Translations under genes and position numbers: made by a program
Assembly (NCBI GenBank): GCA_026770705.1
Contig: JANJGN010000056.1
Coordinates: 1,674,001-1,738,000, forward strand
DNA length: 64,000 nucleotides
Direction: 5' to 3'
Source of the DNA: Isurus oxyrinchus
Lineage: Eukaryota
Notes under the pieces: generated by a model
Database searches by the model: none
What the model saw: the letters and a program-made list of their open reading frames with translations, nothing else
Told to the model about the DNA's origin: nothing
In this document: positions 3,342-40,396 of the stretch, one piece after another
Position numbering within the stretch: the stretch's first letter is position 1
Layout: each line of letters begins with the position of its first letter

Positions 3342-3838
3342 TCAATGGGTTATCCACTGTAATTTGCATTGTTTTGCGCTCAGTTTCACAAGGTACTGCA
3401 TTCCACTCTTCAGCTCCTCCCTAAACCTAGCCTGCGTCAGCGCATAAATGAATGCATTTGTGCAGCAACTGAGGTCCCCTAGCATGAATCCAACTGGCCT
3501 AAGCTCATTTGCCTCAGAATTTGACGTGATTGTTACATGCAGAGAGATAATATATATAACAGGTGTTGTCCAGAGCAATATATAGCTGCCGGTAATACTG
3601 AAGAGTAAAATAATGGACTTTCTTCGGCTTTTTATTTCAGAGTCCTTGTGATGTTCTCCATTACTGCAACTATGGAGACCCCTGCGAACTTTACTGGCTG
3701 CCAAAATACGCCTAGCTGTCAAAACATTTAGCAACAAGATTAGAATGAATGGAACACATGGGGTCAAGGTAAGGGTAATAAATTCAAGTGCGGCCCACTC
3801 AGCAGAAATGAAAAATGTATGTTTTAGGACACAATCGC
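3342..3838 (-). pseudogene. Truncated GPR139-like GPCR copy C (ECL2-TM5-TM7-C-tail only)
   Basis: Minus frame DCVLKHTFFISAEWAALEFITLTLTPCVPF...SCCTNAFIY...FREELK is paralogous to A/B. Homology stops near 3838, where intron-derived sequence abuts; an in-frame stop lies at 3846-3848. Confidence 0.85.
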
Positions 3839-6737: not shown

Positions 6738-8933
6738 TATAAAAACAGAAAAACTGCGGATGCTGGGAATCCAAAACAAAAACAAAAACAGAATTACCTG
6801 GAAAAACTCAGCAGGTCTGGCAGCATCGGCGGAGAAGAAAAGAGTTGACTTTTAGAGTCCTTATGACCCTTTGACAGAACTTGAGTTCGAGTCCAAGAAA
6901 GAGTTGAAATATAAGCTGGTTTAAGGTGTGTGTGTGGGGGGCGGAGAGAGAGAGAGAGAGAGAGGTGGAGTGGGAGTGTGGTTGTATGGACAAACAAGCA
7001 GTGATAGAAGCAGATCATCAAAAGATGTCAACAACAATAGTACAAAAGAACACATAGGTGTTAAAGTTAAAGATGGTGATATTATGTAAACGAATGTGCT
7101 AATTAAGAATGGATGGTAGGGCACTCAAGGTATAGCTCTAGTTGGGGTGGGGAGAGCATAAAAGATGTAAAAAAATATATATTCTTTTCATAATGGAAAC
7201 AGCTGGGAAAAGGAAAATCTATATAATTTATTGGAAAAAAAAAGAAAAGGAAAGGGGAAACAGAAAGGGGGTGGGGATGGGGGAGGGAGCTCACGACCTA
7301 AAGTTGTTGAATTCAATATTCAGTCCGGATGGTAGTAAAGTGCCTAGTCAGAAGATGAGGTGTTTTTCCTCCAGTTTGTGTTGGGCTTCACTGGAACAAT
7401 GCAGCAAGCCAAGGAGAGACATGTGGGCAAGAGAGCAGGGAGGAGTGTTAAAATGGCAAGCGACAGGGAGGTTTGGGTCATTCTTGTGGAAAGACCGCAA
7501 GTGTTCTGCAAAGCTGTCGCCCAGTTTACGTTTGGTCTCTCCAATGTAGAGGAGACCACATTGGGAGCAACGGATGCAGTAGACTAAGTTGGGGGAAATG
7601 CAAGTGAAATGCTGCTTCACTTGAAAGGAGGGTTTGGGACCTTGGACAGTGAGAAGAGAGGAAGTGAAGGGGCAGGTGTTGCATCTTCTGCGTGGGCAAG
7701 TGGTGGTGCCATAGGAGGGGGTTGAGGAGTAGGGGGTGATGGAGGAGTGGAACAGGGTGTCCCGGAGGGAGCGATCCCTACGGAATGCCGAAAGGGGGGT
7801 GAAGGGAAGATGTGTTTGGCGGTGTCATCATGCTGGAGTTGGCAGAAATGGCGGAGGATGATCCTTTGAATGCGGAGGCTGGTGGGTTGATAAGTGAGGA
7901 CAAGGGGGACCCTATCATGTTTCTGGGAGGGAGGAGAAGGCGTGAGTGCAGATGTGCGGGAGATGGGCTGGACACGGTTGAGGGCCCTGTCAACGACCGT
8001 GGGTGGAAAACCTCGGTTAAGGAAGAAGGAGGACATGTCAGATGAACTGTTTTTGAAGGTAGCATCATCGGAACAGATGCGACGGAGGCGAAGGAACTGG
8101 GAGAATGGGATGGAGTCCTTACAGGAAGCTGGGTGTGAGGAGCTGTAGTCGAGATAGCTGTGGGGTCGGTGGGTTTGTAATGGATATTGGTGGACAGTCT
8201 ATCACCAGAGATTGAGACAGAGAGCTCAAGGAAGGGAAGGGAAGTGAAAGAGATGGACGACGTGAAAATGATGGAGGGGTGGAGATTGGAAGCAAAATTA
8301 ATAAATTTTTCCAAGTCCCGACGAGAACATGAAGCGGCACCGAAGTAATCATCGATGTACCGGAAAAAGAGTTGTGGAAGGGGGCCGGAGTAGGACTGGA
8401 ACAAGGAATGTTCCACATACCCCATAAAGAGACAGGCATAGCTGGGGCCCATGCGGGTACCCATAGCCACACCTTTTATTTGCAGGAAGTGGGAGGAGTT
8501 GAAGGAGAAATTGTTCAGCGTGAGAACAAGTTCAGCCAGACGGAGGAGAGTAATGGTGGATGGGGATTGTTCGGGCCTCTGTTCGAGGAAGAAGCTAAGA
8601 GCCCTCAGACCATTCTGGTGGGGGATGGAGGTGTAGAGGGATTGGATGTCCATGGTGAAGAGGAAGCGGTTGGAGCCAGGGAACTGGAAATTGTTGATGT
8701 CACGTAAGGTGTCAGAGGAATCACGGATATAGGTGGGAAGGGACTGGACAAGGTGAGAGAGAAGGGAGTCATGATAACGAGATATGAGTTCTGTGGGGCA
8801 GGAGCAAGCTGAGACGATCGGTCTACCTGGGCAGTTCTGTTTGTGGATTTAGGGTAGGAGATTGAAGCGGGCCATCCGAGGTTGTGCGACTATCAGGTTG
8901 GAAGCTGTGGGAGGGAGATCCCCAGAGGAGATT
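6738..8933 (-). mobile_element. 5'-truncated Penelope-like retroelement (RT + GIY-YIG endonuclease), frameshifted
   Basis: RT motifs MDIQSLYTSIP, GVAMGTRMGPSYACLFMG and FRYIDD (7778-8653). GIY-YIG NLVYCIRCSQCGLLYIGETKR..HL (7348-7620). The 3' pLTR/UTR carries a microsatellite and the GATGCTGCCAGACCTGCTGAG motif. Confidence 0.92.
6841..6883 (-). ncRNA. Degenerate minimal hammerhead ribozyme motif in the Penelope pLTR
   Basis: Minus strand reads aguu-CUGUCAA-a-GGGUC-auaag-GACUC-UAAAA-GUC-aacu. Stems I and II are present, but the catalytic boxes deviate from CUGANGA/GAAA. Confidence 0.45.
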
Positions 8934-11670: not shown

Positions 11671-14479
11671 TTGAACTATCTTGATGATTGATTCCCCCGG
11701 CGCTTCGACAGGTGTGCACTCAAAAAAAATCAAGGTGATATCATTTGTGAAGTTATACCAAGTCTAAATTGGACAATCGATTTCCATGTTTTGTTTACAA
11801 CGTCCGTTCAGGCAGGATAAATTAACTTTGCCCGCCTTTCCTTGTCTTTAACACACTTGAACCTGTTCTCCACAACTGTAGAAATCACTGAATGAATTTT
11901 CAATTTGGGGTTGCCAAAGGTTTTTTTTATGTTCACAATTATATTTTAAAATACATATTTTCATGAGGTGGGGTTGTGTATAAATGGGCCAGAAGATACT
12001 GCTCTTTCCAAGTTGCCTTTGAGAAGGTTGTCAGTGGCCGTTCCTTGTAATCCAGCTCCTTCAGGCTCATGGAGAATTCACATGACTGAGAAGCCCAATT
12101 CTGGACCTATATGTCCATCCGCCGTAGGGCTCGCTTTTGGCCCATTTTGCGTTTCTTCTGCTCCTGTGCCTATGGCCTTCCAATTCTCTGTCGAGTCGCT
12201 GAGCTGCAAACTGGTTTTAGCCTTGCTGGACCAGATGGTGCCAGGCCGAGAGATCGGCAGCATTCTCAACCTGCTCACTGGTGTTAATGCCTCCGTGCTT
12301 TACGGCGACATTGAGCGTGCACTGCTAACTTTATATTTATTCGCCCTTTGGTCAAGGAATGCTCAGTGGCAGATGCAGCTGCCGGTAGGTACGCCTTTCC
12401 TGAAACATGTGTCCGGCGACCGCCATACATCTGCCGCGTTTATGCAGAATTTTAGCTGGTATCAAAGGTATCCAGATATCACAGCCTTGCACCTGTCGAC
12501 AATCCTCCATCCGCACAGTGTCTGTCGCCTGAAGGAGGCCTGTGCACTGTATAGTTTAGCATCAGGATTCCAGTGTGCCGGGCGGAGGGTTCATATGGTG
12601 CAGGTGAGCCACAGGGCTGTTAGTAAGGGAGCATTATGACCCCATTCACTGTGACGCAGCTTCCAATCTCTGGGTTTGGCTTTTAGATTTGAGACAACCT
12701 GTCGTGCAGCTTCCCGTGTTAACCTATTGAGGCCTGTGGAATGTTGGCATTCTCCACATGAGTCCAATGGCGTTGCAAATAAAAAAACACAATAAAAAAA
12801 ATACCGTTTGATAGACTTTGATCTTCCATCTGAGGGAAGCTCCATGTTTTTCTTCCAGAAGTCAGTGAGTGCAGCCTGCCCAATGCCGAACTCATTTATG
12901 TCAGGTCATTTTTTATTTGCTCATTGTTAGTTCTCTTGGAGAGCATGCTGCTGAGTTAGCAAACTTCCTCACAGAACAGAGGGGTGTTTTGTTCAGAGCA
13001 GCTGTGGCTTCTTGGATCAAGTAACCAGCGGTGATTTGATACAGTTTCTCTATCTGCAGATATACTGTTAATCGAAAGTATTCTGAGACAGCACGCAGCT
13101 GGATGTCTCCGTATTCTGCCCTATGAAAGCACAGTGGTCCACGAATAAGACTTCACTCAGTCGCTGTTCAGTCACCTATGTACAAGGTTTTGCTCTTGGC
13201 TCTTTGCAAACGTTGGCGTTTGACCTGAAATGAAAATGCAAACCGATGTCAAGCTCTTTGAGTGCATAGTGGAGAATGGCTTCCAAGTATATGATAAACA
13301 GAGCTGAAGCCATGAACAGTGTCTTACTTAGCGCCGCAGGTCACTTGAAAGGGGTCCACACTGACGAACCACTTTGCATCACTCTGTTTATCAGGTCATC
13401 ATCAAATGCACAAATGACACAGATCCTCTTTTTCAACTTTTCAGGGAGGCCTCATATTCAAGAGTGATTTGGATAGCTTATTGACGAATAATGGATATTG
13501 GGGTCATGAGGATGTATGTGTGTGTTTTCAGGGTGCAATGGAGGGGTAGAGTGTGTGACACTGGTTGGAGGAGTGCAGGCAGGAAAATGGAGCTGAGGCC
13601 ACGATCAGGTAAAACCATTTTCTTTCAGAGCTGCAGCACAGACTCGAGAGGGCGAATGCCCTACTCCTGCCCTTAATTCTTGTGATGTTGGCCATGTATG
13701 AAATGCAGCCCAAACCAACAGCTGGAGGCGACGACAATTCGGGTTCATTATAATGAGTGACTCAATAGGACAATGACAGTCGGCAGAAGACATTTGAGGG
13801 CCAAGGGTTCAATGTTCAACGTGGAATATTCTCCCAGCATTGTACTCTAGTTATCATACAATTTTATAGAAAAAATCGTTTTTCAATCAGCCCAAACATC
13901 TCTCTGGATGGAGTATGTGAGTGGGTGCTGTAGGATGATTGGCTGCTGCAGGAATGGATATTGAGCGTTTATGGGATCGGAATCATCTTGAACACTTTAT
14001 TTTGAAGTATTCTGGTTGAGAAAAGAAACTCCTTCTCCATACAGCTTGTGTTACGCATCACGTAATTAACCAAGACAAACCCTCCACGTCCTCCGCGTGT
14101 ATTTATAACTTCCAGGTGGAATGGCGCAAATTTCAATGCAACGCCATGGATTGTAGGCCTAGTAACCGATGGAGTTGTCAGTGCCAGCGTAATCCATGGA
14201 ACGATCAGTGCAGAGTATGTCTTCCATCTGGGAGCTTGAAAGTCAATGACAAGGATCACACAGTGCCTTGTTGGAACATAGAATGAGACCAGAAACTCAA
14301 AACAATGGGGAACATCTGAAATTTCTCCATTAGGTCTGGAGGATCAGGAACATTGAGTTGCTAAGCTTCATTTTGATGTAAATTAGTGATGATTTTCCCC
14401 GCAACAGCGACTTGTGGTTTAATCTTTTCCTGTCTTGACCACCTCCGATAATATTTACCCGTTGATCAAAACATGCAGC

Positions 14480-14700
14480 CCCTTCCACTGGTTTGACCAC
14501 AGACATCAGTCCAATATTGGACGTTTGACTTTGAAGTCGTTGCTTTCACAAGGAGAGAGACTGACGTAACCTGTTTGTTCAATGACTGAAATTGATTTAT
14601 TTCTTCAGGGAACATGAATGAGCTAATGGGGATTTAACTGTTGTATAAATAAGAGTTTCTCTGAACGGATCATTTCATGTTCTCCGAAAGACTCAGTGAT
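14480..14700 (+). promoter_or_regulatory. Putative core promoter of gene A (TATAAATA at 14644-14651)
   Basis: The TATA box lies in a block with only about 6 differences in 130 nt versus the copy upstream of gene B, well above flanking similarity. RUNX-type ACCACA at 14496-14501. Confidence 0.6.
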
Positions 14701-14799
14701 TCTGCTTCAATTAGCGCTTCTCACAGCAAATAGCCTTTATTGCAATTTGTCAGATACGGGACACTTACAAACCAATTGTCGAAGTTCTCGTTGTCTAAT
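14675..14799 (+). other. Predicted non-coding first exon of gene A (donor GTACGT at 14800; acceptor ends 15366)
   Basis: Starts about 25-30 nt after the TATA box. The donor is conserved in B (GTATGT at 39739). A pyrimidine-rich acceptor ccatctcag lies 24 nt before the ATG in both genes. Confidence 0.5.
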
Positions 14800-15390
14800 G
14801 TACGTTTATTTTCACAAACCCAGGCTAACAATAGGAATTTCTCTTATTCTATCCATTCATTGAATGTGGGCGACACTGGCGAGGCCAGCATTTATTGTCC
14901 ATCCCTATTTGTCCTTGAAAAGATGGTAGTGAGATGCGTTTTTGAGCTGCTGTAGTCTGTGTTATAAGGGGGAGGTCCAGTACTTTGACACAGAGGCAGT
15001 GAAGGAACGGCGATATACTTCCAAATCCGGACGGTGAGGGGTTTGGAGAGGAGCTACTGGTGGTGGCTTTCTCATGTCTATGTTACCTTTGTCTTTCTAG
15101 GTGGAAGCGGACGTGGGTTTGGATGTTTATGTACAGGGCTTCATGTCTGTAAAATGTAGCAGGTTTTCTCTCTTCCCTGTTACGAATGCTTTGGTGAGAG
15201 TTTTCCCCTTATATTCTGGGGTTAATTAATGTGGTATCTCCTTCCGAGTCTCGACAGTGATTTTACATTTTTTATTTTAAGTTTCTGATATTAATTCAAA
15301 GGAGAAGGGTATGTTTGTAAGTTCCAGCTCACATCGTTCCATTCCATCCTTTTTTACCCATCTCAGGAGGAAAGACATCTTCTCATAAAA

Positions 15391-15460
15391 ATGGCAGAAC
15401 TGATACTTCTCAAGATAGAAGCCATTTACTACCCGATTCTCGCAGCTGTTGGTGTACCTG
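15391..15460 (+). CDS. GPR139/GPR142-like orphan GPCR gene A, coding exon 1 (MAELILLKIEAIYYPILAAVGVP + 1 nt)
   Basis: ATG in aaaATGG context. It encodes the IYYPILAAVGVP start of TM1 and ends at the donor CTG|GTAAGA. The phase-1 junction joins in frame to the exon at 24396. Confidence 0.9.
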
Positions 15461-17089
15461 GTAAGAGCCTAAACACAATCAGTGGACGTATTAATGAATA
15501 TTGACTTTCTTCTCAAATGGTGTTGCTGGTAACGTGAAACCGTTCCTTTTCTGTTGGAGAGTTATCAAAGTTTAGGTGTCACGTTAACTGATTTCTTACT
15601 ATTGCTTCATATTTCATGCATCATTCTAGAGTGTTGACACCATATTTATTCTTTGGGGAATTTCTTGAATTTGGGTGCGCTCTGCAATAATTGTCATGAC
15701 CAAGTGCAGACCGTCTTTAAAATTGGAGATAAAACGTATCTATGAAAATCAATGCAAGGGCAAATTCGCATTCTGCAGAATTCAGCTTGAACTAATTGAA
15801 AGTGTTTGCTCACGGTTTTCCCCTGTTTTCCAATATCGCAAGCAACAGAATCCCTGTCAAATCACGTACTTTTTAACAGCGATATTTTTACAAATCAGTG
15901 TGAAGTTACGAAATCTGGAAACTTGGCTGAATCACAATGCTGTGTGTGATTAAGACATTCCGAAGTCTTACTCGCTTGTATGTTGATACAAATGATTTTC
16001 AACAGCCTTTGTTCACGACCACGTTGATGGAATTACTTAAAGTAAGCGTGATTTGTGCTCTTTAAGCTTCCATAGACATAATGTTAACAATGACCGGATT
16101 GTATTATTTTGTGGATTTTAGCTGAGGTATAAATTTCGTTCAGGACACAGGGGACTACAACAATGTTGCTCCTCGAAAAAGTGGAATTGAATCTTTTTAC
16201 GTTTTCCTCGTGAATCAATTTGACATCTTTTCTTAAAGGTTCTGCTTGTGGAAGTGCAGAATTAATTTACTAAGACATTGGAACATTAGCCGAGAACTTT
16301 GTTCTGAAGTCCTGGCGCCGGAAGCAAATCGTTAAACATCTATCTCAGCACGGAGATTTCAACTGACTGAGCCATAAGTGGCCTGATTTTGAAACAACTA
16401 CACACCCCAAGTAGTAATTTGGTTCTGAATATTCTGCTCCATTCAATTTCTCGCCCTGCACTACCTGCTGATGTAAAAAAAACTTGCAAGTTTATTTGAT
16501 TTGTATTGAGGATTGAAATTAGTTGGATTAAAGCATTTTCGGACTCCCCTGTCTCTTTTTGAATCTCGCATTGCTAAGTGACATGCAGGTTCTGACAAAA
16601 GAGCATAGAGGCAGAGGCAGTGGGAGCAGAAGTTAACAATTTGGCCGCTTGAGCTTGTTCAACTACTCAATTATATCATAGCTGTAAAGATGCATTCAAT
16701 TCATTTCCTTGCACTATCGCATATCTCTGGATGCATTTAACATTTAGAAAATGGTTCATCGCGCTGCCTTCAACATTCCCAATGACTGAGCCTCTGCCGC
16801 TGTTGGGAGAGATAGTTTCAAACATTCGCTGCTCTCTGAGTGAAGAAATTCCCCCTCATGTCTGCCCTAAATGCACACCTGTTATTCTGATACTGTCTCT
16901 CATGATATTAGACACATCAGCCAGGGGCACATCCCTCCAACATCTGTAACATCGAACCCTGTAAGAACGGTCTATGATTCAGTGAGATCATTTCTCATTT
17001 GGCAAAGCTCCAGAAAGCATAGGGTCAGTCTCGTCAATGTCACCACATTGGAATATCCCAGCTAATTCCCAGTAATTCAAGGAATTATC

Positions 17090-19860
17090 TTGTTAACAAT
17101 CATTGTAGCACAGCTATAACAACAGCGCAAAAACTCACGCCAAAAGGAGAATTTGGAATGCTTGTCCTGCACCACAACCATCACCATAATAATGCCACAT
17201 GAAAATTGAGGAGTTGGAGATAGATTGGGTTTGGAATTGCAAACTCTGGTTGTGCACATCCCTGGTCTAGCATATGGCACAAATTGCCTGATGAATGCCC
17301 ACTTTTATGTTGCTGATCAGATTGAAAACTACCCCATATCGCACAAAGGTGGTGTCACATTATACGATGGAGGAACTTTCCAATGTGAGGGCCGACTATG
17401 TCTGCACAAGGAGCATGTGGTGGCCTATCCTATCATTCCTGTAATGGGCAGGTGCATATGTTGCTTGACGTTTGGTGAGGCGTGTTCATTTCGGTCTTTG
17501 CACCTTGTTGTTTCCCTGATCACCTTCCAAAGACCCAATCCAGCGGTTATATGTCTGACTCGGCCTGATCGGCCACTAGTGGTGCTACCGAACCTGTCTT
17601 GGTCATAGACGATGACAGCACCTGCATACAATAGTTTTTGTTTCTTGCCACTCACCAAAACTTCGTTTTATGCCCCACAAGAGTGCATAAGTTAAGCGTG
17701 AGGTGCAGGTGTTTTAGGTGGGATTGGAGGAAAAACTTTTTTCCCCTGAGTTTGTTGAATGTCTCTAATGCGCTGCCTGGCAGGGTGGTAGAGACAGATT
17801 GTCTCACATCCTTTAAAAAGTAACTGGATGAGCACTTGGCACATCAATACCTTCAAGGCTATGTGTCAATTTCTGGTAAATGTAATTAAGTAGTCAGGAC
17901 AGGTGTTTTGCACATGCCAGTACAGACTCGAAGGGCTGAAGTGCCTCTTGTGCACTGTGATTCTGTGATTCTATGATTCGTCCATGGATGCTCATTCATT
18001 CATCATCTGAGGGGAACGGGAGGTGGTCAACAGAAGGGAATATTCAGTGCCCGTGTTTTACATAATGCCATGAGGTTGAATATAAGTTCCCCGTGCTCTT
18101 AGCACTCTGAAAAATGGTGCTCACTGAACGGAGAGGCGTGGCCAAATGATATTTAGGAAAGCAACAATGGAATTGGGCGAAGCCAAAATTCCCGTTTTCG
18201 ATGAAGTTATTTTCCTCAGGTGTTGGTTGATGGTTTAAATGAACTTTAAAATCAGTAAGAATAGCTATTCGCTAGAGATAAACAGCTTGAATCATTAAAG
18301 CTAAGCATTAGTTGTCAAACAAGCAGCCTGATTTGTCGTGGATTAGTTCAATATTGTTGAATGTTATTGAAGCAGAACTCATCCAGAAAACTGTTGTTTA
18401 TTCCAGTAGATTCCTCAATTGTGCATTATAGATGGAGTGAAGGTTTTGCAGAGTCAGGCGGGTATGTCCTCGCCACAGAATTCCCAGTCCTGACTTGCGC
18501 TTCTAGTCACAGTTTCTAGTCAATGGTTTTTCCGTGGATCTTCAAAATGGAGAATTAAACGATGGTGATACCATTAAATATCTATGAGAAATTGTTGGAC
18601 ACTTTTTTTTCGTAGGTGGTCATTTCCTGTCGGTTGTGTGTCTAATATGACTTGTCAGTTTTCAGCAGAATCCTGGATATTGCCCAGGTCTTGGTGGACA
18701 AGGGCAAGATTTCTTCAACATCTGTTGAATCGCGAATGGTTTTGAAATTTAAACAATCATCAGCGGACACTCCTGCCACTCACTCTCCTACCATAAGACT
18801 TCCTCTGGGCATATGTTGCAAAGAAGTTAATTGATGAAGAAGCTCAAGGTCGTTTGACTCAGGACACTGCTCATAGGATCTCGTGCAGTGCTTTCATCGG
18901 GATGAGATGATTCACCTGAGAAACAAAACAAAAAAATCTTCTTTGTGATAGGTATGACAGCAATCAATGGAGATGCTTCCCCATTATGTTTATTGACCTG
19001 AATCCTGATATATCTCCTTCTTACCACAGAATTTCAAATGTTGTCTTGATGTAAATAACATCCGCTCTCCACTCCCCGCGTGAATTCAGCACTTTTGACC
19101 ATGTTTGGTTTAAGGCCGAACCGAGAGTTGGAGCTCAGACGAAGCAGAAAATGGTCATCAGTGAGCAAGTTGCTCACTAGTACATGGCGATTGAAAGCAA
19201 TTACCATGACCGATTCCATCAATATGTTCATGATGAAGAATAGGGGATAAGGGGGTAATTATTGGTCCGATTTGACGAGTTTTGTTTTTGTGGATAGACC
19301 CAGCTGTGCGACAGCTCACATTTTCGCTTAGAGGCCAGTGTTTTAGCTGTCCTATACCAGGTTGTCTAGGAAGATTTATTCGGGAGCACTGAACGCCCGG
19401 ACGATTGCCGGTATCTGACAGGACCCATAGTCTCTGCATCATCCCGTTCCTTCAGTCATTCCTTTAGATGAAGTGCAGTGAATCACATTAGCTCAAAATT
19501 GGCATCTGTGACGCTCTCATCCTCAGAAGGGGGACGGGATGTTTCACCCGCCCTTCACGTCAGTCTGAATATGGCGGAAAGTTCTTGAGCCATGTGTATG
19601 CACTGATGTGCTGCGCTCCACAATCATTGCCGATATGGATATTGGTGGGGTGTTCACCACCCTTGATTCGTTGCTCTGTCCAACATCATTCAAGATGGCA
19701 TGAGCAGAACTTCAGAGCTAAGTTAACGTTATTTGCTGGTTGGATCAATTAGCCCTGTCAATCACATTCTGCATCCATTGCTTTGCATACAAGTCGTCCT
19801 GTCTCACAATTCACCAGGTCAATGCCCCGTTTTAAGGTATGATTGCAGCAACTCCTGATA
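17090..19860 (-). mobile_element. Heavily decayed LINE remnants in the gene A intron (paralogs at ~42000-44880 and inverted at 4300-6737)
   Basis: Endonuclease-like and RT-like fragments (QVIREPTR...; VVREP; SVL.P.IFS). Confidence 0.55.
17666..17980 (+). mobile_element. CR1 3'-end insertion in the gene A intron (paralog at ~42560-42872)
   Basis: R.NFF...WNALP-like RT C-terminus and an ATTCTGTG/ATTCTATG tail. Absent from copy C. Confidence 0.75.
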
Positions 19861-22800
19861 TATGACAGGTGTCGGCAAAAGTCATCCTTTTGAGCAATTC
19901 ACTTCGAAAGCCTGGAAGGATACGAGCAGAAGTGGCATGGGAACACTCTTATTGCAAAATCCTTTCCAAGTCACACCCCACACTGACTCCGAGACACATT
20001 AGCGTTCCCTGAATGCCACTGGATCAAACACCTGTAAATCCATCACTCGTAACACTGTGTGTGCAACCGCATCACATGGACAGCAAGAAGAATAATATCT
20101 GCTCTCGGAAAAATGCTGATCCTACCAATGATTCCCCAAAAAGAAAGTGCTGCATAATGCCGAATCTATGAATGTTTTTGTCATTTGATATGAAAGGACG
20201 TTCCTTTATGTTTACTTTGTAGCACTAAACTAAGACAGACTGCAACATGCATGTTTTAGTTCAAATCCTTTCGCAGTAGTCTGGTTCCCAACTGAGGATG
20301 TATATCTTCAATTCGTTCCTGAATACCTAAATCTGTAGCCGAAACGATGGGCTGGACATTTCTCCCCAAATTGCAGCTCAAACCTACACACTCACACTCC
20401 CCATCACCCCTCGCACCCACCCCGCTTACCACCCCCACTCCCCAGCATCACCCACCCCCATCGAAAACGTTGAATCTGCACAAATATCAGATACCTGCAT
20501 CGAGTATAATGGTGTCGTGTACTTACTTCTCCCCAAATGCAGATGGAGAATGGGCGGGTCAACCATTCTCAAGTTACTTATTAACAGGTTATTGAGCTTG
20601 TCAGTAAACCAATCGTATGTTGTGCCGTTTGGTGCATTGCATTTGCTGTGGCTCGGATGAGAAAAATAAGTGTTTTTGTGCAGCTATTGTGAGACGGGCA
20701 AAGAGCGGTAGGGAACTCCTGCCTCCAGGAGCATGATCGAATGTAGCAGCAGATTGTGCTGGAGAAGATGGCTGCATCTTCAAGCTTTATTTCTCACTTT
20801 TTCGTTTCTTGCCTGAGCATTGAATGAAAAGTATTTTTCAAAAAAATGTCTGAGTATAGGTTGTTTTGAGCTTGTAGCCATAGCGACTGTCTGTTCACAG
20901 CATTACACTCTGCTGCATGACGTCCAGGCATTCACTGTCGATTGGATACGGACACCATTTTGCATCTTTCATTGCCTCTTCCCCGGAATTGGATGGATTG
21001 ACGAGGTGGAGGCCGCCTAAGGGAGGATGAGTAGGACAAGAGGGAGTAGGCCACTCATTTTGCATTTACCCAATATCACAATGCCGAAAAGCGTGAAATC
21101 CAGTCTGATGCCTACTTGATGTAACGTTGCTTTATGAACGTAAATCACTTTCAGCGTTTTTAACCTGCACCGGGTGTCTTGGCCTATCTTTCTACTGTTA
21201 GTGTTGCTACCGAGTCTGCAGAAATGTGTCATAACCAAAAACACTGTTCAGTGGATCTCACTCTGTGTTGCTTTAGCCAGAGCATTCACAACGTCCCTAA
21301 AATGAATTTGAACTTTAGGATCTGCATGGCATACAAATGATGCCACAGATAAATGTTAATTTGTGCTTACATTACGTTGCAAGCAACGCTCCTGAAGTGA
21401 CATAGAGTTAGGAAAGTGGCAGAAACTAAATCGCTCTGTAGTTCATCAGACTGGGGTATTTAAGGAAACCACTCCAAGAGGCATATAGGTCAATGTGCAT
21501 TGAACCTGCTCTATGTTTCTTTTCACAAACAGCAAATCAATAAGAGAAGCAGATTGCATTTTCAGATAGCAATTGTGCAGCCTATTTAAATGTTCAATTC
21601 TCGAGTTATTCGATCAGGGTCTTATGTGGATAATATACTTGATATCTGTACACTTAATTTCACAGATAAAATGATGTATAATGGTTTGGATAATTCACCG
21701 TTGAATTCGTTAGAAAAATCTGTGGTTCATTCCTGGGGCATTTCAATGTTTAATGTAGAAGAAACGTCTAGAAACATGTGGATAATTTATTGGATATTAG
21801 TTTTGATAATTAATTTGTTCAAACATTTGCTGCTTCAATATATAATTGTTAAACTTACTGTCTTTTTCCTACTTTTAACTGTTTCCTTATTTACAGTTCT
21901 GTCAAGTACAGGTTCAAGTGCTAATAATCTGGTTAACCATCTCTGTTTAATTCAAAAATGCGAATTGATATTTATGACTCTGAGTGAAAATTCATGCCAT
22001 TGTAAGGATATCAATACTAGATTTGTTCAGGGAATAATTTGTTTATGATAAATGAACATAAATCTAACTTACAAGCTGATACAGAAATGTAAAATTCTGT
22101 TTATCTTTATCTGACTAATACCACTTTCTTTTTTCAAAGCTCATGTAAAAAATTAATGAACATCCTCAGGAATTAATATGATCCAAAATGTTAATTCAAC
22201 ACCCCGTTTATAGACATTGCTCCATTGCATTGATGTTTTCCCAAATACAAGTTTGCGGAAACTACACTTTCTGTCTGCTCCAGGTTGCAAAGCCTTCAAA
22301 GCACTTAGTACTTCATTGAACTCATCCCTTCCTTGTGAGAATGTGCATTTTATATTCCTGAATTTGGGCATCCTGAGTCTAACCAGAGATTTCATGCGAA
22401 AATCTATTCTGTACCCTTGCAAGAGCCATGAAATCCTATCCTACACCATAGGCATCAGAACCACAAACACAATTTAGGAAGCGAACAATTACTTACTTTG
22501 GATATTAATTATTAGAGTTATTTAACTTGCTTTGAAATGCAGGTAATAAATAAATGAACATGTGCATGAACTTAGTAAATGTATGGCAGCAACAAATAGG
22601 TTCATTGAGATTCACTGAGAAACTCCATTCTTCAAAAATGCAACGGAGTTTCATTAGTTAAACATCAGAAACGTTGATGCAGGCACTATTATCTGAGGCT
22701 CACATCAATTTCGCTTGATTTACAAAGCTTATTGGATTTAATCAGTAATTAGTAGAAATCTCTCAGTTTATTCTTCTGTATAGTAACAGATCATTGAATT

Positions 22801-24395
22801 AGATAGCTAATTCACAAAAATGTTCTTGCATTTTGAAAAATAAATATGCATTTTATCAAATATTGCTAAAATTGAAGGATGGTATGATCCGAAACAATCT
22901 AAAATGAAAATAGCTGCAACGTATGATAATTTAACCATGCATATGTTAGGAGTTAGATCATTATCATCAAGTAATCGACACTTCATTGTTTTGCTCTTCT
23001 AATCTTATATTAGACCTAAAATAATCTACCTACTCAAATCGATGGGCCGTCACGGTCCATGTCGACTTGGAACTTTTGCCCTTGGTGTCCTGCAAGTGTC
23101 AGTGTTCAGCTTCACATTTCAAATCATTTCTCACAGATATTGTGAATGACATGCAAGTGACTCCCTTATGCCCTTTCGGAAAAAAAAGCGCTTTGATATA
23201 CAGCTCATCAATCAATGGGAACGTACCCCTGTCTCCCCAGAATAGATAGTTGATTTTAAACACACTAGAATCACATCTTCGAATTGCTTACTACACTTTA
23301 ACAATGTGTCTTGTATCGCTGCGAATCTTATTGTCCCTGTTTTTTGCGATATCTATTCACTGCACTTTAAACTAGTCCTTCCACAAAGAAGCGTGGTCCT
23401 GCAAAATTCCCACTCTGCCTTCCCGTTGGCCAATAAATATTTCACACTTAATCTGATACCTATGTCACTGTTCCCATTCGGCCATTAAACTACCCGCCTG
23501 ATCAGCACCAAATATACACAGTTGGCAAAGAAATGTTGCTTCACTTTTTTTCTGCAATGAATTTGCGATGCATTCACCTGACCTAAACCTTCACAATGCC
23601 CAGCCTACATATTAATCTTCCATTACTGAGTTTGCCTTAAAAAAAAACCTGACTCATCTGCCCTCATCTCCTACCACAACGTTTCAATGAGAATCTGCAT
23701 AAAAATGTCACCATGTTTTGATTCTCATTGGACCGGATCTGTGAAGTCTCCTGGGTAAACCCTTGTTCGGCCTCGTCTATGCTAGTGTTTCTTTGTAGCC
23801 CAGTGACCATTCTAACATATCCTGTGCAGTTAATATTCCATCTTTACACTCCCAAGCGTTGAGAGTATGCCAATGCTGCTGGGCAACAATTTACGTACGA
23901 GCTGTGAGTCCTGTGTCACAGCAACCCTTTCAAATACTTACCGCATCCATAAACCACGCAGCGCACATTGCACGACTACCTCTTCCAGAGTCTAACTCTG
24001 CTTTCCCCAGATTCCATTTTGCGTCTTTATTTCCCAAATGATATTGCACCTTCACACATTAGTTGTCTCTTTACACCTCCTACTTACTATCTCAAGTTCA
24101 ACATGCCGAGCCGTTTTTGTACCTTCAAATTGTCCACATCACATTCTCGCTCAAGAAGCTCAATCGTTATTGCACACTAGTTGCCCAGTTTAAACTGATG
24201 ATGTTCCTATCAAAAGAGGAATGATCATTTCCCTGTCCACATTTACTAAGTCCAATCCACATTTAGTATATGCTCATCTCGGGAAGCAGGTCCTGCATGT
24301 TTGGGTGAAATGCATGAGCCTTTGCTGCAACTGCAAGAGAAGTTGCCTTGTTCATCTGTGACTTCTATCTCCTTCTCTCTCTTCCTCACTTACAG

Positions 24396-25300
24396 GTAAT
24401 GTTGTTGCGATTGTGATCCTTTCCAGAAGAAAGTGTGGTCTCTCCAAATGCATTACATGTTATATGATTGCAATGGCAGCGGCTGATCTCCTGTTTATTT
24501 GTACTGAAGTCATACTGAAGGAAATGCTGAATATTTATTTTCCGGATTCATTCTTGACCATGAGCACGGTATGCCATCTAACGGAGACATTGATTTATGT
24601 AGTCACTTCAGCCTCTGTCTGGTTGACATTGGTGTTCACCTTCGATCGTTTTGTGGCGATATGTTGTCTGGAACTGAGAAAAAAATATTGCACAGAGAAA
24701 ACAGGTGTAGCTGTCATATCAGTAGTGAGTGTTTTGAGTTGTTTGACAAACATTCCCTGGTATTTTGCTTATGAACCTGCATATATAATTGGCAATGTAC
24801 CTCGCGGTTGCAAACTAAAACAGACATTTTTCAGTTCTGCTGAATGGGCTGCATTTGATTTCTTTGTGCTAACTTTGACCCCACTTGTTCCATTCATTTT
24901 AATTTTGTTGCTAAATGTTTTGACGGTGAGACGTATTTTAGCTGCCAGTAGAGTTCGCAGGGGTCTCCGCGGTTGCTGCAATGGAGAGCATCACAATGAT
25001 CCAGAGATAGAAAGACGAAGAAAGTCCATAATTTTACTCTTCAGTATAACCGGCAGCTTTATATTGCTTTGGACAACTCCAGTCGCATATGTTTTCTCTC
25101 TGCATACAACAATCATTTCATATTCTGGCACTAATGAACTTGGGTCAGTTGCAATCATGCTTGCGGTCCTCAGCTGCTGCACAAATACATTCATTTATGT
25201 GCTGACACAGTCTAGGTTTAGGGAGGAGCTGAGGAACGGAATGCAATACTCTTTGAAACGGTGCGTAAAATTAGTCAAATTACAGCTGAAAACCAATTGA
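24396..25300 (+). CDS. GPR139/GPR142-like orphan GPCR gene A, coding exon 2 (TM1-TM7); full protein 324 aa
   Basis: Polypyrimidine tract plus TACAG acceptor ending at 24395. Open frame GNVVAIVILSRRKCGLSKC...MAAADL...FTFDRFVAICC...PW...RRKSIILL...W..P...SCCTNTFIY...FREEL, with seven hydrophobic segments and TM3/ECL2 cysteines. Confidence 0.93.
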
Positions 25301-25455
25301 CATATGCAGGAGGACTTAAAAACTGTGCCTGAAGGGAGTCACATTAGCAAAATACTTGAAGTGATGTATGCTGACTCTGGATAAAATTACATCCCAGGTG
25401 AAAATACTCTTTCATGGTGTAGTCTCAAATTGAACCCCTTTTCACTTTATTCTAT

Positions 25456-25493
25456 AATAAATGGTGGACTTGAGGCATGATGATAATAATAAA
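25456..25493 (+). terminator. Candidate polyadenylation signals (AATAAA x2) of gene A
   Basis: AATAAA at 25456 and 25488, about 160-190 nt after the stop. A positionally equivalent AATAAA lies at 50817 in B. Confidence 0.4.
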
Positions 25494-26889
25494 AAGCAAA
25501 TTACTGAACAACCCTGGTTATAGTTGCAGGGTTTGAGAGTTTGAATTGTGATGCCAGTCTCTGATCGCATAGAGCTCATTGGAGCAGATGCTCTGATCAA
25601 CAGTCCATACATCACAGGCTGGATCAAAATAACTCGAACAAGCGTAACATAGAAAAACAGCACAAATACCCTTCAATGTCTCTTCTGGGCCGAATAAGAT
25701 ATGGGGCAGTTTTCAGAACAGGTTTCATGAAACCTGGCTCCCCCCAAATATCCGACTGTTGCACAATGAGCTGCTACTCAGAGTTCCATATAAATCACAT
25801 GATTAAAACAAAGAATGCCTGGTGATCACGTGCTTTGTGAAAGACTGGGCATTGGCGCAATTGATCATATGGTAAATTTAAGACTCATTCCAACGATCTA
25901 TCGGACTTAGAGACGGTTCCATATCTTGATTTCAAATTTCCCTACAATTCCTTTGCAAGCTTGCAAAACTCAAACTTAATTATTCACGAAGACAGGGACG
26001 GCCTCCTCCCCACATGCTCATTCACAACAGTCTATGTTTCATGTTTTCTGGTCTTTTCACACACACGGCCACCAAATGCTTGTTATCACAATTCACAGAT
26101 GCTGTGGCGTCTGAAAATTATTAATTTGAAGTCCACTCATCAAAACAACGAGTGAAGCTTCCACCAGATATCCGCACCAATTCCCAGCTATGAAACGTCC
26201 ACTCGCTCATGGCCCAACCATAATCATCTTCCTTTCTATTCCTTTGTATTTTGTGCATGAACAAACATAATGTAATTCTTCTCTTCACATATTCTCATCA
26301 TTTATTCCCATTCACTTAAACACAGATCGTAGATGCAACCATATACAGGTTACAGCACGGAAAACAGAATTTGACCTGCCCTTTCCTTATTGGCTCCCTG
26401 AAGAGGATATGCATCGATCATCCACTCCTACTCCTTGACCATGCTGTCTGGGTCATTCAGTTTTCTCAGATGCTAACACAAAATCGCCTTAACCTTTCCT
26501 AGTTGACCAGTCTAATCATCCAGGGAAATGTTTGGCCACAAGAACGGCCAATTAAAATAGCAAATGGAACGTGCCGTTAGATAGAAACCTACACCTGCTG
26601 TCAAGGAATAAATGAACATTTAAAAAAAAAGATTCGGTCATGGCATGAGGGTTACAGCTGGCAAGAAAAGCATTTATTGCCAAACGCCCATTGTTCTTAC
26701 AGCAAAGTGAACGTGATCCACCATTTCGAACAGCTACAGTGATTGTGATATTTCGCAGACGATGCCTTTGGCCTGAATTACTAAATAACCACAAGTCGGC
26801 CACGCAGCAATCTTTTCTAAATAGTTCCTCTGACCTTTTGGCACCTGCACTTTCCAAATATACACCCCGGCTGCTGAGCTCCCAGTCAT

Positions 26890-27880
26890 TTTAGTTCCTG
26901 AGGGAACCTGATTTTCTCAGGGTAGTGACCGACGCTCAACAGTGTTCAGTTCTCTCTTCAAAGATCTTTCCTCCATTGCAAAGTCAATAATGGAGATGTT
27001 CGCTGATGATGCACAATGCTCAACAGCATTCCCAACTCCTGATATAGTGAGGCAGCCTAGGCCAAACTCAGCATGTCCTGGACAATATACAGGCTTTGGC
27101 TGACAATTGGCAAACATAATTCAGACCACACATGTGCCAGACAATCACTGTGTACAAAACAGATAATTTAACCAACGCCTGTTGACGTTCAATGGCATTA
27201 ACGAATTTCCCACGAGCAGTGATTATCATTGACTGGAAACTGAATTGGATTAGGCATATAAACACAATGTCTACAAATCCACTTCAGAGGCTAGGAATCC
27301 TGCGGAGAATAACACACCTTCTGGTTCCCCAAATCCTATCCACCATCTTCAAGGCAAAATATAGGATTGTGATGCTCTACTCTCCACAGGCCAAGATGCT
27401 TGCAGCTCCAACAAAACTCAAGAAGCTTGACAGCATTAAGCAGAAAGCAACTGGTTGTTTGACACCACATCGTCACACATTGAGTCCCTCCACCGCTGAC
27501 GATCAATGGCAGCAGTGTGTGCCATCTACAAGAAGCACTTCAGCAATTCCCCAACACTCCTTAGGCAACACTTTCCAAACACACGACCGCTACCATCTAG
27601 TAGGATAAGGGGCAGCAGGCGACAGAGAGCACAAAAACCTCGAAGATTCCCACCGCACCCCCCCCCCCCCCCCCAAACTACTTGCAACCCTGATTTCGAA
27701 ATGTATTGCTGTTCCTTCTCTGTCGCTGGGTGTAAATCCTGGAAATCCATCCCTATGTGCACTGTGGGTGTACAAGTACACGAGGGACTACTGCTGTACA
27801 AGAAGGCAGCTCTCCACCATCTTCACAAGGGTAAGTATTGATTTCCAAGAAATGCTGTGCCAGCGATTGAAGCCAAAATC
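26890..27880 (+). mobile_element. Decayed non-LTR LINE RT and 3' end
   Basis: MFADD and KLNWIRHIN...QRLGILRR...STIFKA...YSP fragments. Confidence 0.72.
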
Positions 27881-30800
27881 CCGTAATTGAATAACAGAAT
27901 CGTGGGGGAGTTCTGATTCTTCAATAACCAGAGAACGTTTCAGTGTTTTCTCATTTTCTCGCTTTTTCCTGCCTTTTCTCCTCACCCGCGCAATATTTCA
28001 TCCACTTGTTTCTCTCACTGCACGTGCTACTGATTGCATTCTAAATATGAATTTGGCCGCAGATTTATGTTAACTAATCAGACGCCCCCAATCTTACACA
28101 GAAAGGGAAGGTCACCCGCATTGAAAAGTCAGCACGGCGCACCCCACATCCTGCCCCCAAAGTGCGGTGCCAAGCGTGTTTGCCAAAATTATCCATAGCC
28201 TAGGCATGGCTGTGACAACCACATTCAAATATCGAAGAATCTGCAGCCTGGTCACTCTTTTCAGCCACATTCTTTACAACTCTGACATTCTGCTTCCTTT
28301 GACTCTCTCTACCCCTTCTGCCAAAGTGTATCATTTTGCCCTGCAATGCATTAAATTGCATCTGCTAATTCCTTGCCAATTCTGCTCTTTTTTCCATGTC
28401 CGATTGCAATGGATTCGTATCATCCTGACTGATTATCATCCAATCCACCAAAGTGGTATCCAATGAAAGCAGCGACGGGGGGAATATATCGCGGCCACAG
28501 TGGGGGAGTATGAGATTTTCGCCGGATGAACGGGAATTAAATTTTATCTCACTGGAGGGAGCGGTATGAAAGGGGGAGAGCAAGACCATGGCGGGTGATG
28601 GGCATAGTAAATTCTCTCTATCTCTCCCTCTCTCATTCTCTCTCTCTCTCTTAAATAAACGTTCAACCTCCTAAATAGTAAGTATAATGCCTATAATAAT
28701 GGTTATTGTTTCTGCATTTCAGCATTTGGCTAATTCAACTGACAAATTATTTATAAGCCTCCTTGATGATTATTTAATCACTATGTGGTCAGGACTCTGA
28801 AACAACTGTTTCACTGTTCATGGAACTCGGACAAAAAACATCTCACTGAGCACCGTACATGGAGCAGTCAGATTTCAGGACCCGTCATTGTTTTACCTCT
28901 GTCAAGATCGCCATAGGACCTCCTGTCACATTGTCGGATGGAGCAGGGGATTACGGGATTCATACAGTGATCCTGACAACTACAGATGTAACATGAGACA
29001 GAGTCCGAAATGCAGCAATGGAAGCCCTCGCATATTAGTATTGAATATAAACATAGTAAAACAACCAATGATGCTGCACCGAGCATTATATGGCAAAGTG
29101 ACAACAACAAATCATATTGATATGACATATTTAACACAATCACGTGGCTCAAGTTGCTTCAGATCAGCTCCACATAACAGAACATGACAACTGATCAAAG
29201 GGATAGTCAAACGGGTCGGTCTTAAGAATTATCTTGAAGCAGAAAAGGGAGGCAGAGATTTGGAGCCGCGCTGGGGGTTGGGGGGGGGGGGCGGGTGGGG
29301 CTGTGCGTGGCGGGGATTCCAGAGCATGAACTCTAGGCAACTGAAGGCAAGTTCAGTAATGTTGGAAACATTATATTCGCAGAGGATAATGCAGCCAGAA
29401 ATAGACTACCACAGTTATCATGGTGTCTTAGGGGGGGAGGAGGAAATTACAGAGATAAGGAAGGGAAAACGAAGAGACATCACAGACGTCAAAGTGACAT
29501 TTATTCGCAAATGACTAACCAACCACAGATGAGTTGCCTTCCCTCGCCTCCTGTTTTTAAGCTCAAATATTCACTTTTAATGCAAAAAGAATTGGGGGTG
29601 TCACAGGTTATTAGATCGAGGTGAGTGCGCAAAGTACAGAAAGTCCGAATAAGAACACCATGTTTTTTTTCTAAAAAGAATGTTCGCCTTTCAGAGAAAG
29701 AAAGAGATGGGAGGGATCACTAAACACGTAGAATAAAAAGCTTTCCCAACATAATTTGCTTGTTTTTGCTTCAAAAGTAAAAAAATGCGTTATTCCACCA
29801 TCTTGTTTCATGTGAACATCATTGTGGGTGGAATCTTTATTTAGTTTTTAGTGGTAACAGTGATTATTTCACCCTTTCCTCTCCCCCAGTGAAACTGACA
29901 GGAGGCGCTGTATATCAACAGATGCTTATTACCCTCTGCTTATTTTTGTTTAATCCTAGTTATTATTTCAATCTTGCTGCTCTGATCAAAGAGAGAAGGA
30001 GCACACATGGGGACATTAATCTGCGTCAGAACCCGAGGAAGGGACTGATCTAGGCAGATACCATTGGTCCCATCATTATTTTTGCTCTCGCCAACACATA
30101 TCTTCATTGAAGCAGGGTGAAATGGAAAGGGCAGGAGAGGGGTTTGAACTTCTGGTTACAATGCGGCGCAATAACTCTTCAGATGTTTGCCTAGCAGAGA
30201 CTTAATCAGGTTAATTGCATTCTGGTAAAAAATCAGCAGCTTCTGTCTCACTCGGCCTCCCTTTCTTTCTCTCGCTCTCACACACGCACATCTCTCATTT
30301 CTCTCTCTTTCTCTCAATTCTCTCCATCGTCTTATCTCGTTTGTTTACACTGTGATAACATCGCCTTCACGATTTTCCATGTTCCCGAATCCAACTCATC
30401 GACCTTTCCTGCGCAGTATTCTCGGGACTGGAGCTTTCATAAAGGGAAAGTGGCCTGGACCAGGTAGTCAGTTCAAAAATACGGGATAAAACAAACTGTA
30501 ATCCAGGGAACTGAACTGTTTATAAATACACTGAAGGGATATACCATGCGTGGATTTATGGCTCTGATTAGAGTGTGCAACACAGAAAGGTATGCAGACA
30601 CAGGGATCTGATGCATGGTGTGTGGCCTTACCGTTCTCCAAGCAGTGAAATGCATGTAACTATTCATAAATAAAGCGGTGGAGTTGATTCGGAGAGAACT
30701 CGCACAGTTGGACACTCTCAGAAACATTAACGTTTACATAAGTCCAGCAAACTTCCAATTAAACGAAATCCGGAACGGAAATCCTGGCATAATATTCCCA

Positions 30801-31899
30801 CTAATTGTGTTAATGGAACAATTGGATTGTCTCTAAAAATCTGGATTTGTAATGCCATATGGTGGAGGACATATTTCGGCCTCACACTGCCCGACCTACA
30901 AGTTATTCCAGTCCCACGGTAACGTGCTTGACTCTTAACTGCCCTTAGAAATGGGCGAGAAAATAATCAGTTTTATAAAGACGCTGCAGAAAAGAAGAAT
31001 AAGGATGAAATCGTACTGCCTATCCAGCTTGAACCGAGGGACTGCTCGGCACCAGCTTCTCTAGTGCAATCATAGATCAGCAGCAAAAGCAGGTCTTGGC
31101 TGTGGTGGTCACCGCCGATGAACGAAGAGGGAAAAGTGCAGTTAAACCAACCCTGCCGTCGAGCCTCAGTCACATCTGGGGTCCAACACGAAAACAAAAG
31201 TGCTGACCGTTGTTTTACTCCAGCTTGCGGAAACTCACAGTCTTAATAAATAATTACCAACGTGGTAGAACGAAACATTCAATCTGCCTAAATTGTAACA
31301 CTGACCATAAACAATGCAAAGAACGTTAAGGAGTTCTGTCCTTCACAGGCCTGGATGGTCCAATGTTGAAATACAGAGGAAACGAATACAAGAAGTCAAA
31401 CTGCCTTTACCTTTAAGGTTACATATCTGGAATAAGTAGAAAGTTGTTTATTTACTTTAAAATAATCATGAATTATATAAATGCATCCAGTTCTCTGACG
31501 ATTATTAAGGAAGAATTTAACGGGCCTAGCTGGTATGTAACACAGGGACGGCAACAATTCCATTAACATTTCACTGTCCGCTGGTAAAGTGGCCCCGATG
31601 TCTGCTCGGCCGAAAACACATATTCGAAAGAATTGCTGAACTTTTGACTTTTGAGAGCGACGAAATTCTAAATGTCTTAAGGGTTCATGTGCTTTTAAAA
31701 TAAAATGTTATTTGTTATATTTACAATTAATTTATTATTAATCTTGACTTTTTTCGTTTGACCTCTTCCCCTCAGTGCAAGGTGCCTTCTCATTCTACCA
31801 ACAGAAATCCTTGTGCGACCGGATGGAGCAGGTTTCCAAGGCTGATGCGTTCTTTTTCTGTTTATTCTCTTTCTCTAAACTCCAGCAGGAAGGTATTTT

Positions 31900-33015
31900 T
31901 TAAGGAACTGAAAGCAGAAAATGTAGGATTTCATGTTCCAATCAGGCAGTGCACATGATTTTCTGAAATAACAATCGTGTATCAAGTTATTAGTTATTTG
32001 AGGATGTAACAAGGACGATGAGGAAATAAGGACGATAAAATGCAGTTTTATTTTAAATTACCTAAATATATCAGCTACGTTTCCACTTAAAAAAAATGAA
32101 TACACATGTTACATCGTCATGGGTTTAGGGTAACATAACATCATGACTATCGGGCGGCTTAACAGGAAACAGAGTCGATATAACTGGCTCGTTTTTAAGT
32201 TGACGAACTATATCTAGACGGGTGAGGATACCATAGGGTTCAGTACTGTGGCCTCAAGTTTACCCAAACCGTTTTATAATGTTGACTTGGAAAAAGAAAT
32301 GGAGTGCACTGCGGTCAACTTTACTGGCGATATAAATGTGCATTGAAAAATAATTCTGATACCGTTGCAAAGACTCTGCAAAGATAAATGTTAAGTGTTT
32401 GTTCAAAAATAATAAAAACACGTTGCAGGAACCTATAGGAAATTGTCTGATCGTCATTTTGGTAGGTATAATAGAGGCTGAAGATTTGAAGGTAGAGATA
32501 GAATTCTGTCTGTTGCAGCAGAATTTCTCCAGATTTTCTCGAACATGTATCATGAAGAGTTAGCATACCGGTACAGGAAGTGAAAAGTAAGGCATATAAA
32601 ATATTAGCCTTCACTGGATGGTGGGTGATGTATGCAAGTAGGGATTCCTTGCTGCTGCAAAACGTTGGTGGTGTCTTGGGCGGTTAAGCTCTCCTTATTT
32701 AAGTGGCATTGCAAATGCGTTAGGCACAGTTTGTAGATGGATCACACGACTGCTTCCTTGTATGAAAAGCTTGTGTTATGAGGAAAAGTCTGTTCATTGG
32801 GCCGCTGCTCATCAGAATTTGGAAAGGTGGGAAGAGATATTCTTGAAACCTATATGGTTCTGGAGCGGGTTTATCAGTTTAGATGTTGAGAGGATGCTTA
32901 TCTAGTGGGGGAGTCTATTACTAGGGGAAATGTTTCATGTTAAAAAGGCTCCCTTCCAAACCAGAGAATATGGGGAACTTCATTTGTCAGGGGGCCAGCG
33001 CTATTTGGAATTCAG
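31900..33015 (+). mobile_element. Decayed CR1 RT region (paralog ~62050-62730)
   Basis: QHGF.K..SC.TNL..F.DVT...DAV-like motifs, clearest in ORF 61955. Confidence 0.65.
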
Positions 33016-40326: not shown

Positions 40327-40396
40327 ATGGGAGAACTGATAATTCACAAGATAAAGGCCATTTACTACCCTATTCTCGCAGCTGTTGGTGTACCAG
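40327..40396 (+). CDS. GPR139/GPR142-like orphan GPCR gene B, coding exon 1 (MGELIIHKIKAIYYPILAAVGVP + 1 nt)
   Basis: Paralog of 15391-15460. Start aagATGG, donor CAG|GTAAGA, in frame with the exon at 49723. Confidence 0.9.

Follow-up and report, generated by a model that had tools for sequence, protein, structure and literature searches.

It is rather probable that genes A and B of Isurus oxyrinchus belong to a subfamily of duplicating and dying class A receptors in which the inner half of the protein is under purifying selection and the predicted ligand pocket changes at an approximately neutral rate, while one residue, at generic position 7.43, changes faster than neutral and has likely been selected for differing ligand preferences among the copies. 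Most of the apparent positive selection in this subfamily vanishes once the analysis controls for CpG hotspots, for gene conversion, and for synonymous change being faster in the outer half of the receptor.

Two intact genes, a relic, and a pseudogene

The DNA analyzed here, referred to as the window, is a stretch of 64,000 nucleotides from I. oxyrinchus (assembly GCA_026770705.1, contig JANJGN010000056.1, positions 1,674,001 to 1,738,000 of the forward strand). It contains two intact two-exon class A GPCR genes on the plus strand, A and B, in both of which the intron is located within TM1. Exon 1 of gene A (15391 to 15460) comprises 23 codons plus one base, encodes the N terminus and the first half of TM1, and is followed by a GT donor. 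Exon 2 (24396 to 25300), which is preceded by an AG acceptor and ends with the stop codon, encodes the rest of the 324-amino-acid receptor, including the portion from ECL2 to TM7 (24780 to 25200) on which the first-pass annotation of this DNA had focused. The splice sites of gene A were deduced from the sequence, and among the family copies, exon 1 was checked in A and B only. Gene B, with exon 1 at 40327 to 40396 and exon 2 at 49723 to 50630, encodes a product of 325 amino acids with one extra codon in outer TM6. It is a tandem duplicate of A within a block of approximately 25 kb, with about 82% DNA identity; the duplicated units of about 25 kb that carry A and B extend over window positions 12794 to 32587 and 37707 to 62736 and are 79 to 83% identical. 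Both products score well above the curated cutoff of 30.5 bits for PF00001 (71 bits for A and 63 bits for B), which is the sole match in the profile search of A and B at an E value of ≤0.01.

A, B, and a further copy, C, had previously been compared as three paralogs, which is appropriate for the intact A and B, whereas C is a dead relic. Copy C (3342 to 3833, minus strand) is 5' truncated and corresponds to the 3' part of exon 2 only, from the ECL2 cysteine at its start (window 3833) to the stop codon, with Asp at position 7.43 (3476 to 3474, minus strand). Intron-like sequence lies upstream of this start, and neither an exon 1 nor TM1 to TM4 was found for C within the 64-kb window. That C is a working third receptor is ruled out, since no exon 1 or TM1 to TM4 was found for it in the window and the break is common to all eight copies of the block; an assembly error behind the break is likewise ruled out, since eight of eight near-identical block copies carry it. 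The block comprising C and A is present eight times in the genome at 97 to 100% identity (contigs C56, C39, and C153), and some of the near-identical blocks on different contigs may be alleles. The closest full-length relatives of C, with 92 to 93% DNA identity, are L076 and L077 (C56:2003210-2004640 and C39:7923445-7924872), in both of which His takes the place of Arg3.50 and a premature stop follows helix 8; the C branch as a whole may therefore be decaying.

Copy D (56335 to 57133, plus strand; start approximate, at a putative acceptor) is a divergent pseudogene with a frame change and two in-frame stops, which represents a more distant branch of the wider family and shares about 40 to 46% identity with A. 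At 7778 to 8653 (minus strand), there is a broken reverse-transcriptase reading frame, whose RVT_1 match is weak and below the cutoff and which sits roughly at the expected place of exon 1 of copy C; we presume that it is a non-LTR or Penelope-like element. Elsewhere in the genome, a second recent burst comprises 16 copies with 93 to 96% identity to L126, each with two or three TGA stops (C51, C63, C70, C85, and others), and it is probably a pseudogene amplified after breaking.

A large family of orphan receptors in sharks

Searches of the I. oxyrinchus genome returned at least 139 matches with A as the query and at least 131 with a divergent member, 16 of which were in common, giving a total of about 250 matches to a wider orphan receptor family; at least 136 of the matches belong to one subfamily. 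The database proteins closest to A are those of the basking shark and the white shark (75% and 74% identity), followed by many shark and ray proteins at 50 to 65% identity, mostly labelled "probable GPR139," and 2,307 database clusters passed an E value of ≤1e-10. Class A receptors are characterized by D2.50, DR3.50, W6.48, N7.49/Y7.53, and a cysteine pair linking TM3 and ECL2, all of which are invariant or nearly so in this family. A fold model of exon 2 built on 97 sequences yielded a class A seven-helix bundle (pLDDT of 77), for which TM-scores against numerous solved class A receptors are about 0.7; a single-sequence fold of the receptor reached a pLDDT of 40 and was discarded. We deem the family a set of shark-expanded orphan class A receptors, for which the "GPR139" label does not establish membership. 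A literature search, which covered few subscription journals, found no published description of the family, and the name GPR139 is absent from the main texts of a survey of vertebrate chemoreceptors (PMC10869828) and of the catshark sensory atlas (PMC11979771). Of four sequencing runs that we probed, the two that we presume, by a guess, to be RNA yielded only fragments of distant paralogs, which says little about expression.

Divergence of the outer and inner halves

The first-pass annotation held that divergence among A, B, and C concentrates on ECL2, TM5, TM6, and TM7, with almost invariant intracellular segments. All nine TM5, TM6, and TM7 strings that it quoted are present in the sequence, as is the one-codon TM6 insertion in B, and the outer halves of the three copies do differ more: between the ECL2 cysteine and helix 8, variation is seen at 32 of 61 outer positions versus 19 of 82 inner positions (Fisher's exact test, p = 0.0003). 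To call the inner segments almost invariant is an overstatement, given these 19 variable positions and the fact that C differs in two of the three inner strings quoted. Between A and B alone, the outer bias is found from residue 162 on (22/61 versus 8/82, p = 0.00015) and is absent over residues 25 to 161 (8/64 versus 11/73). The intron divergence of the two genes (0.156) is similar to their synonymous divergence (0.153), and their nonsynonymous divergence is 0.128 in the outer half and 0.056 in the inner half. The concentration of change is borne out for TM6-ECL3-TM7, with a dN/dS of 1.04, but not for outer TM5 (0.70) and ECL2 (0.72), which do not exceed the remaining outer positions (0.72); outer TM3 has a value of 0.92 (shared synonymous rate, family-wide). 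As suggested in the first-pass annotation, the copies may differ in ligand specificity and may have a common G-protein coupling.

Selection tests on 104 paralogs

Selection was analyzed in 104 unique exon 2 sequences of 280 codons. They derive from 128 of the 139 matches to A, with 11 partial ones left out, after 18 sequences were dropped for an early stop, a frameshift, or a missing acceptor, 3 outgroups were removed, and 3 identical copies were collapsed. The site models kept relative branch lengths fixed and relied on naive empirical Bayes, and a one-ratio check gave a log likelihood of -9851.43 versus -9851.46 with IQ-TREE. Generic position numbers were assigned from motif anchors and from the alignment to GPR139, and 26 positions were assumed to make up the canonical pocket. 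In addition, 14 ligand-contact positions of GPR139 were taken from the text of the structure paper (PMC8807744).

Neutrality was rejected in the comparison of M8a with M8 both without a CpG term (2ΔlnL of 38.1) and with it (31.7), and the fitted CpG factor of 4.8 raised lnL by 104. Residues 45, 52, 160, 203, 215, and 216, which are fast in the plain codon model, lie in CpG contexts, and their posterior probabilities fell below 0.5 with this factor. With the CpG term, the sites exceeding a posterior probability of 0.95 are 74, 84, 206, 256, 269, and 281, five of the six being outer; residue 206, in inner TM5, is high in M8 but CpG prone and fails correction. Codons 84 (position 3.26, top of TM3; 24575 to 24577) and 256 (position 6.55; 25091 to 25093) are second-tier fast sites with nominal significance only. 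To see whether misalignment around the indel produces the signal at codon 256, the 11 B-type codons were masked; the likelihood ratio test (LRT) value was then 8.4 or 3.4, according to the neutral rate assumed, and significant only nominally.

With one shared synonymous rate, dN/dS is 0.81 in the outer half, 0.45 in the inner half, 1.07 in the canonical pocket, and 1.41 (1.15 to 1.70) at the GPR139 contacts. The synonymous rate itself is 0.52 in the outer half versus 0.37 in the inner half (p = 1e-4), and flanking DNA evolves at rates above both (0.65 and 0.77), so that inner synonymous sites change at roughly one-half to two-thirds of the rate seen in flanking DNA; gene conversion may be part of the reason, as may some constraint. 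Because the synonymous rate is also higher in the outer half, the difference in dN/dS shrinks to 0.68 versus 0.53 (p = 0.02) when each class is given its own synonymous rate, with values of 0.69 for the 26 pocket positions and 1.00 for the 14 contacts. The nonsynonymous rate is still biased toward the pocket, both for the canonical positions (0.449 versus 0.306, p = 0.015) and for the contacts compared with other outer helix positions (0.57 versus 0.306, p = 0.0012), which agrees with the earlier claim that the variable sites are not randomly placed. Taken together, these values indicate a pocket that is free to change about neutrally and is not driven as a whole. In the site-wise check proposed with that claim, a single codon, 281, keeps a dN/dS above 1 once 280 tests are corrected for, and the pocket taken together does not exceed neutrality. 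The inner half has a dN/dS of 0.39 on old branches and 0.79 on young ones; the old-branch values for the outer half and the GPR139 contacts are 0.68 and 1.17. Recent copies are therefore weakly constrained, and many may be drifting.

Position 7.43 and its probably remodelled surroundings

Codon 281 of gene A (25166 to 25168) encodes Val at position 7.43 and is hypervariable: the 104 paralogs carry Asp (24 copies), Val (20), Ile (20), Leu (16), Ala (9), Phe (7), Ser (4), Thr (2), or Gly (2) at this site, which is Leu in gene B (50496 to 50498). It is the only one of the 280 sites to pass Bonferroni correction, and it does so whether the neutral rate is set at 0.5, 0.65, or 0.8 (LRT values of 28.7, 20.8, and 15.1, respectively). 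Its dN/dS is 5 to 6 in four reanalyses (a tree built without codon 281, 82 cleaned genes, a local tree of TM6 to helix 8, and 25 cluster representatives) and about 3 against the flank-calibrated rate. In the 25 representatives, the first two bases of the codon need 16 changes, a number reached by none of 274 adjacent non-CpG flank pairs; in all 104 sequences they need 18 changes, reached by none of 138 intron pairs and by 9 of 210 3'-flank pairs, for which the tree fit is poor. All four bases occur at codon positions 1 and 2, and a single change is found at position 3. A tree-free test of how often a neutral site would show nine amino acids is weaker, with uncorrected P values of 0.005, 0.04, and 0.10 under the three neutral rates. 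The codon aligns without gaps to GPR139 Leu275, described in the structure paper as lining the deep ligand pocket under the number 7x42 (PMC8807744), and model confidence near residue 281 is only about 64 pLDDT. Residue 7.43 is predicted to face the pocket, and it likely tunes the predicted ligand detection of each copy. A look for a hairpin or repeat that might raise mutation at codon 281 turned up one imperfect 25-nt inverted repeat (25161 to 25241, 76% complementary), the left arm of which covers codons 280 and 281.

Two further positions set the subfamily apart from the wider family, which is represented here by 93 proteins (95 of the 120 listed shark and ray proteins were aligned, and two lamniform ones were set aside). 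Codon 280 (position 7.42; 25163 to 25165) encodes Gly in 94 of the 104 subfamily copies and Ala in A, in contrast to Gln in 77 of the 93 wider-family proteins, and codon 252 (position 6.51; 25079 to 25081), at which GPR139 has Arg, encodes Pro in 89 of the 104 copies and in none of the 93 proteins. The span from W6.48 to N7.49 measures 39 residues in 92/104 subfamily copies versus 43 to 46 in 83/93 wider-family proteins. Both lamniform database proteins carry Pro6.51 together with Gly7.42. The pocket bias recurs in the 93 other shark and ray proteins (entropy of 2.34 versus 1.42 bits, p = 0.0009), in which positions 7.39, 3.29, 3.32, 2.61, and 2.65 vary the most and 7.43 is Leu in 64. This suggests that the TM6-TM7 wall was rebuilt in the subfamily and that 7.43 then became its variable element.

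There are also signs that segments are exchanged between copies. L074 is a mosaic over codons 188 to 292 (23 consecutive diagnostic sites, p = 2e-4), and L023, L019, L020, and L006 have short stretches suggestive of conversion, with uncorrected p values of about 0.02 each; 6 of 11 run tests were nonsignificant. Among nine A-type copies that hardly differ, three have codons 280 and 281 exactly matching those of neighboring paralog types, through either conversion or retained ancestry, and some repeated states at codon 281 look like conversion rather than new mutation. Overall, the A- and B-type copies contain 73 minority bases, of which 34 are shared with a neighboring paralog type; some of these may be ancestral. 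A PHI-type test did not find a gene-wide recombination signal (p = 0.27 and 0.46).

What drives the change

In the reading that we prefer, purifying selection would hold the inner half of the receptor, and the predicted pocket would change at about the neutral rate. Loss of the Gln7.42 side chain, gain of Pro6.51, and an ECL3 about 5 residues shorter would have reshaped the TM6-TM7 wall, whose size and charge would then be set by the residue at 7.43 (Gly, Ala, Val, Ile, Leu, Phe, Ser, Thr, or Asp). Through this residue, selection would favor copies with different ligand preferences, and gene conversion would likely swap such segments between neighboring copies. The receptors may serve in sensing, either of external chemicals or of immune cues.

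It is doubtful, in our opinion, that diversifying selection is absent altogether and that the copies are simply redundant, with a relaxed pocket and with conversion that homogenizes the inner segments and mimics selection at codon 281. Such relaxation would account for a pocket dN/dS of 0.69 to 1.00 with its own synonymous rate, for an inner synonymous rate (0.37) well under those of the flanks (0.65 and 0.77), for the 34 of 73 minority bases matching neighboring types, for the weakness of the tree-free test at codon 281, and for the loss of the CpG sites 45, 52, 160, 203, and 215 once these are modelled. However, codon 281 has every base represented at its first two positions and a single change at its third, it exceeds in the 25 representatives all 274 flank pairs, which share any conversion or tree error, its signal persists on the local tree, and the PHI-type test is without a gene-wide recombination signal.

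Positive selection across the entire pocket (ECL2, TM5, TM6, and TM7), partly hidden because drifting copies enter the average, seems improbable, since codon 281 alone passes correction against flank-calibrated neutral rates and both TM5 and ECL2 equal the outer background. The contact-set dN/dS of 1.41 with a shared synonymous rate and the six sites above 0.95, five of them outer, speak in its favor, as does the joint change of 5.42, 6.59, 7.35, 7.38, and 7.39 on the stem of A. A pN of 0.224 between A and B in TM6-ECL3-TM7, compared with an intron divergence of 0.156, also fits, but it amounts to 17.5 differences in a region that was chosen afterwards and has an ambiguous indel inside. We consider it highly improbable that an arms race, in which pathogen or toxin binding rather than ligand sensing drives change of the outer surface, underlies the pattern: second-tier fast sites do occur in exposed loops (74 in ECL1, 263 and 266 in ECL3), but these loop sites fail correction, the strongest site, 7.43, is predicted to lie deep in the bundle, and expansion in copy number fits a repertoire better than escape.

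The pocket-biased pattern of change is common and ordinary in kind for such families. The useful outcome is that the controls explain most of the apparent selection and leave one residue, 7.43, as a concrete experimental target. On balance, the first-pass observation largely holds, and its interpretation holds in part. A more speculative proposal, which we advance only tentatively, is that the family constitutes an undescribed sensory repertoire of sharks that outnumbers their known olfactory families combined, with a lamniform-type pocket rebuilt around Gly7.42 and Pro6.51 in which 7.43 would act as a specificity dial reset by selection and short conversions. The family has about 250 matches in this genome, and even the count of the one subfamily exceeds the 20 to 62 complete olfactory receptor genes that the chemoreceptor survey gives for individual cartilaginous fishes (PMC10869828).

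Comparison with known receptors

By family profile, GPR139 is the nearest solved relative (E = 2.6e-19, the next best being 1.4e-12); single-sequence and fold searches place other structures first. The GPR139/GPR142 structures referred to are PDB 7VUG and 9M42 (PMC8807744), and the fold alignment, made with 7VUI, has about 22% identity. Like GPR139 and GPR142, the shark family has W6.48 and a residue other than proline at 7.50. Arg6.51, which the structure paper describes as unique to GPR139/142 and required for activation (PMC8807744), is missing in the subfamily (Pro in 89, Ser in 10, and Leu in 5 of the 104 copies) and occurs in 15 of the 93 wider-family proteins. Phe7.50, given for GPR139 in the same text (PMC8807744), is replaced by Thr in 101 copies and by Ala in 3, and the invariant Cys3.25 and ECL2 Cys of the subfamily have no counterpart in the GPR139 alignment. 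Furthermore, GPR139 and GPR142 are a pair, whereas the shark family has hundreds of copies. Functional hallmarks of the GPR139/GPR142 type are activation by Trp/Phe or JNJ-63533054 and Gq/11 coupling. GPR210A/B, which Rinne et al. (2019) describe from coelacanth, gar, and fishes as unnamed orphan sets close to GPR139/142, in a text without shark data (PMC6504862), are a possible bony-fish counterpart, by description only.

No family-specific profile for OR, TAAR, V1R, or T2R matched A or B at an E value of ≤0.01. Chemoreceptor-like features are nevertheless present, namely, a large clustered family, pseudogenes, and pocket-biased variation, the last of which is also a feature of ORs. TAARs are marked by Asp3.32, unlike the shark receptors, in which 3.32 is Thr, Ile, Phe, or Ser. 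The shark genes also differ from those of the OR, TAAR, V1R, and V2R families in having an intron inside TM1 and PF00001 as the sole profile match. They resemble the OR, TAAR, V1R/ORA, and V2R/OlfC families in their clustered birth-and-death evolution with pseudogenes. The expansion of FFAR2 (GPR43) in chicken, as reported in PMC4453067, is alike in being a lineage-specific array of class A receptors with gene conversion and a small number of positively selected residues near the ligand groove; it differs in comprising about 23 copies with a known ligand, compared with at least 136 matches in an orphan subfamily nested in a larger family. The pattern of variation thus resembles those of chicken FFAR2 and of the chemoreceptor families, and the shark family is a member of neither.
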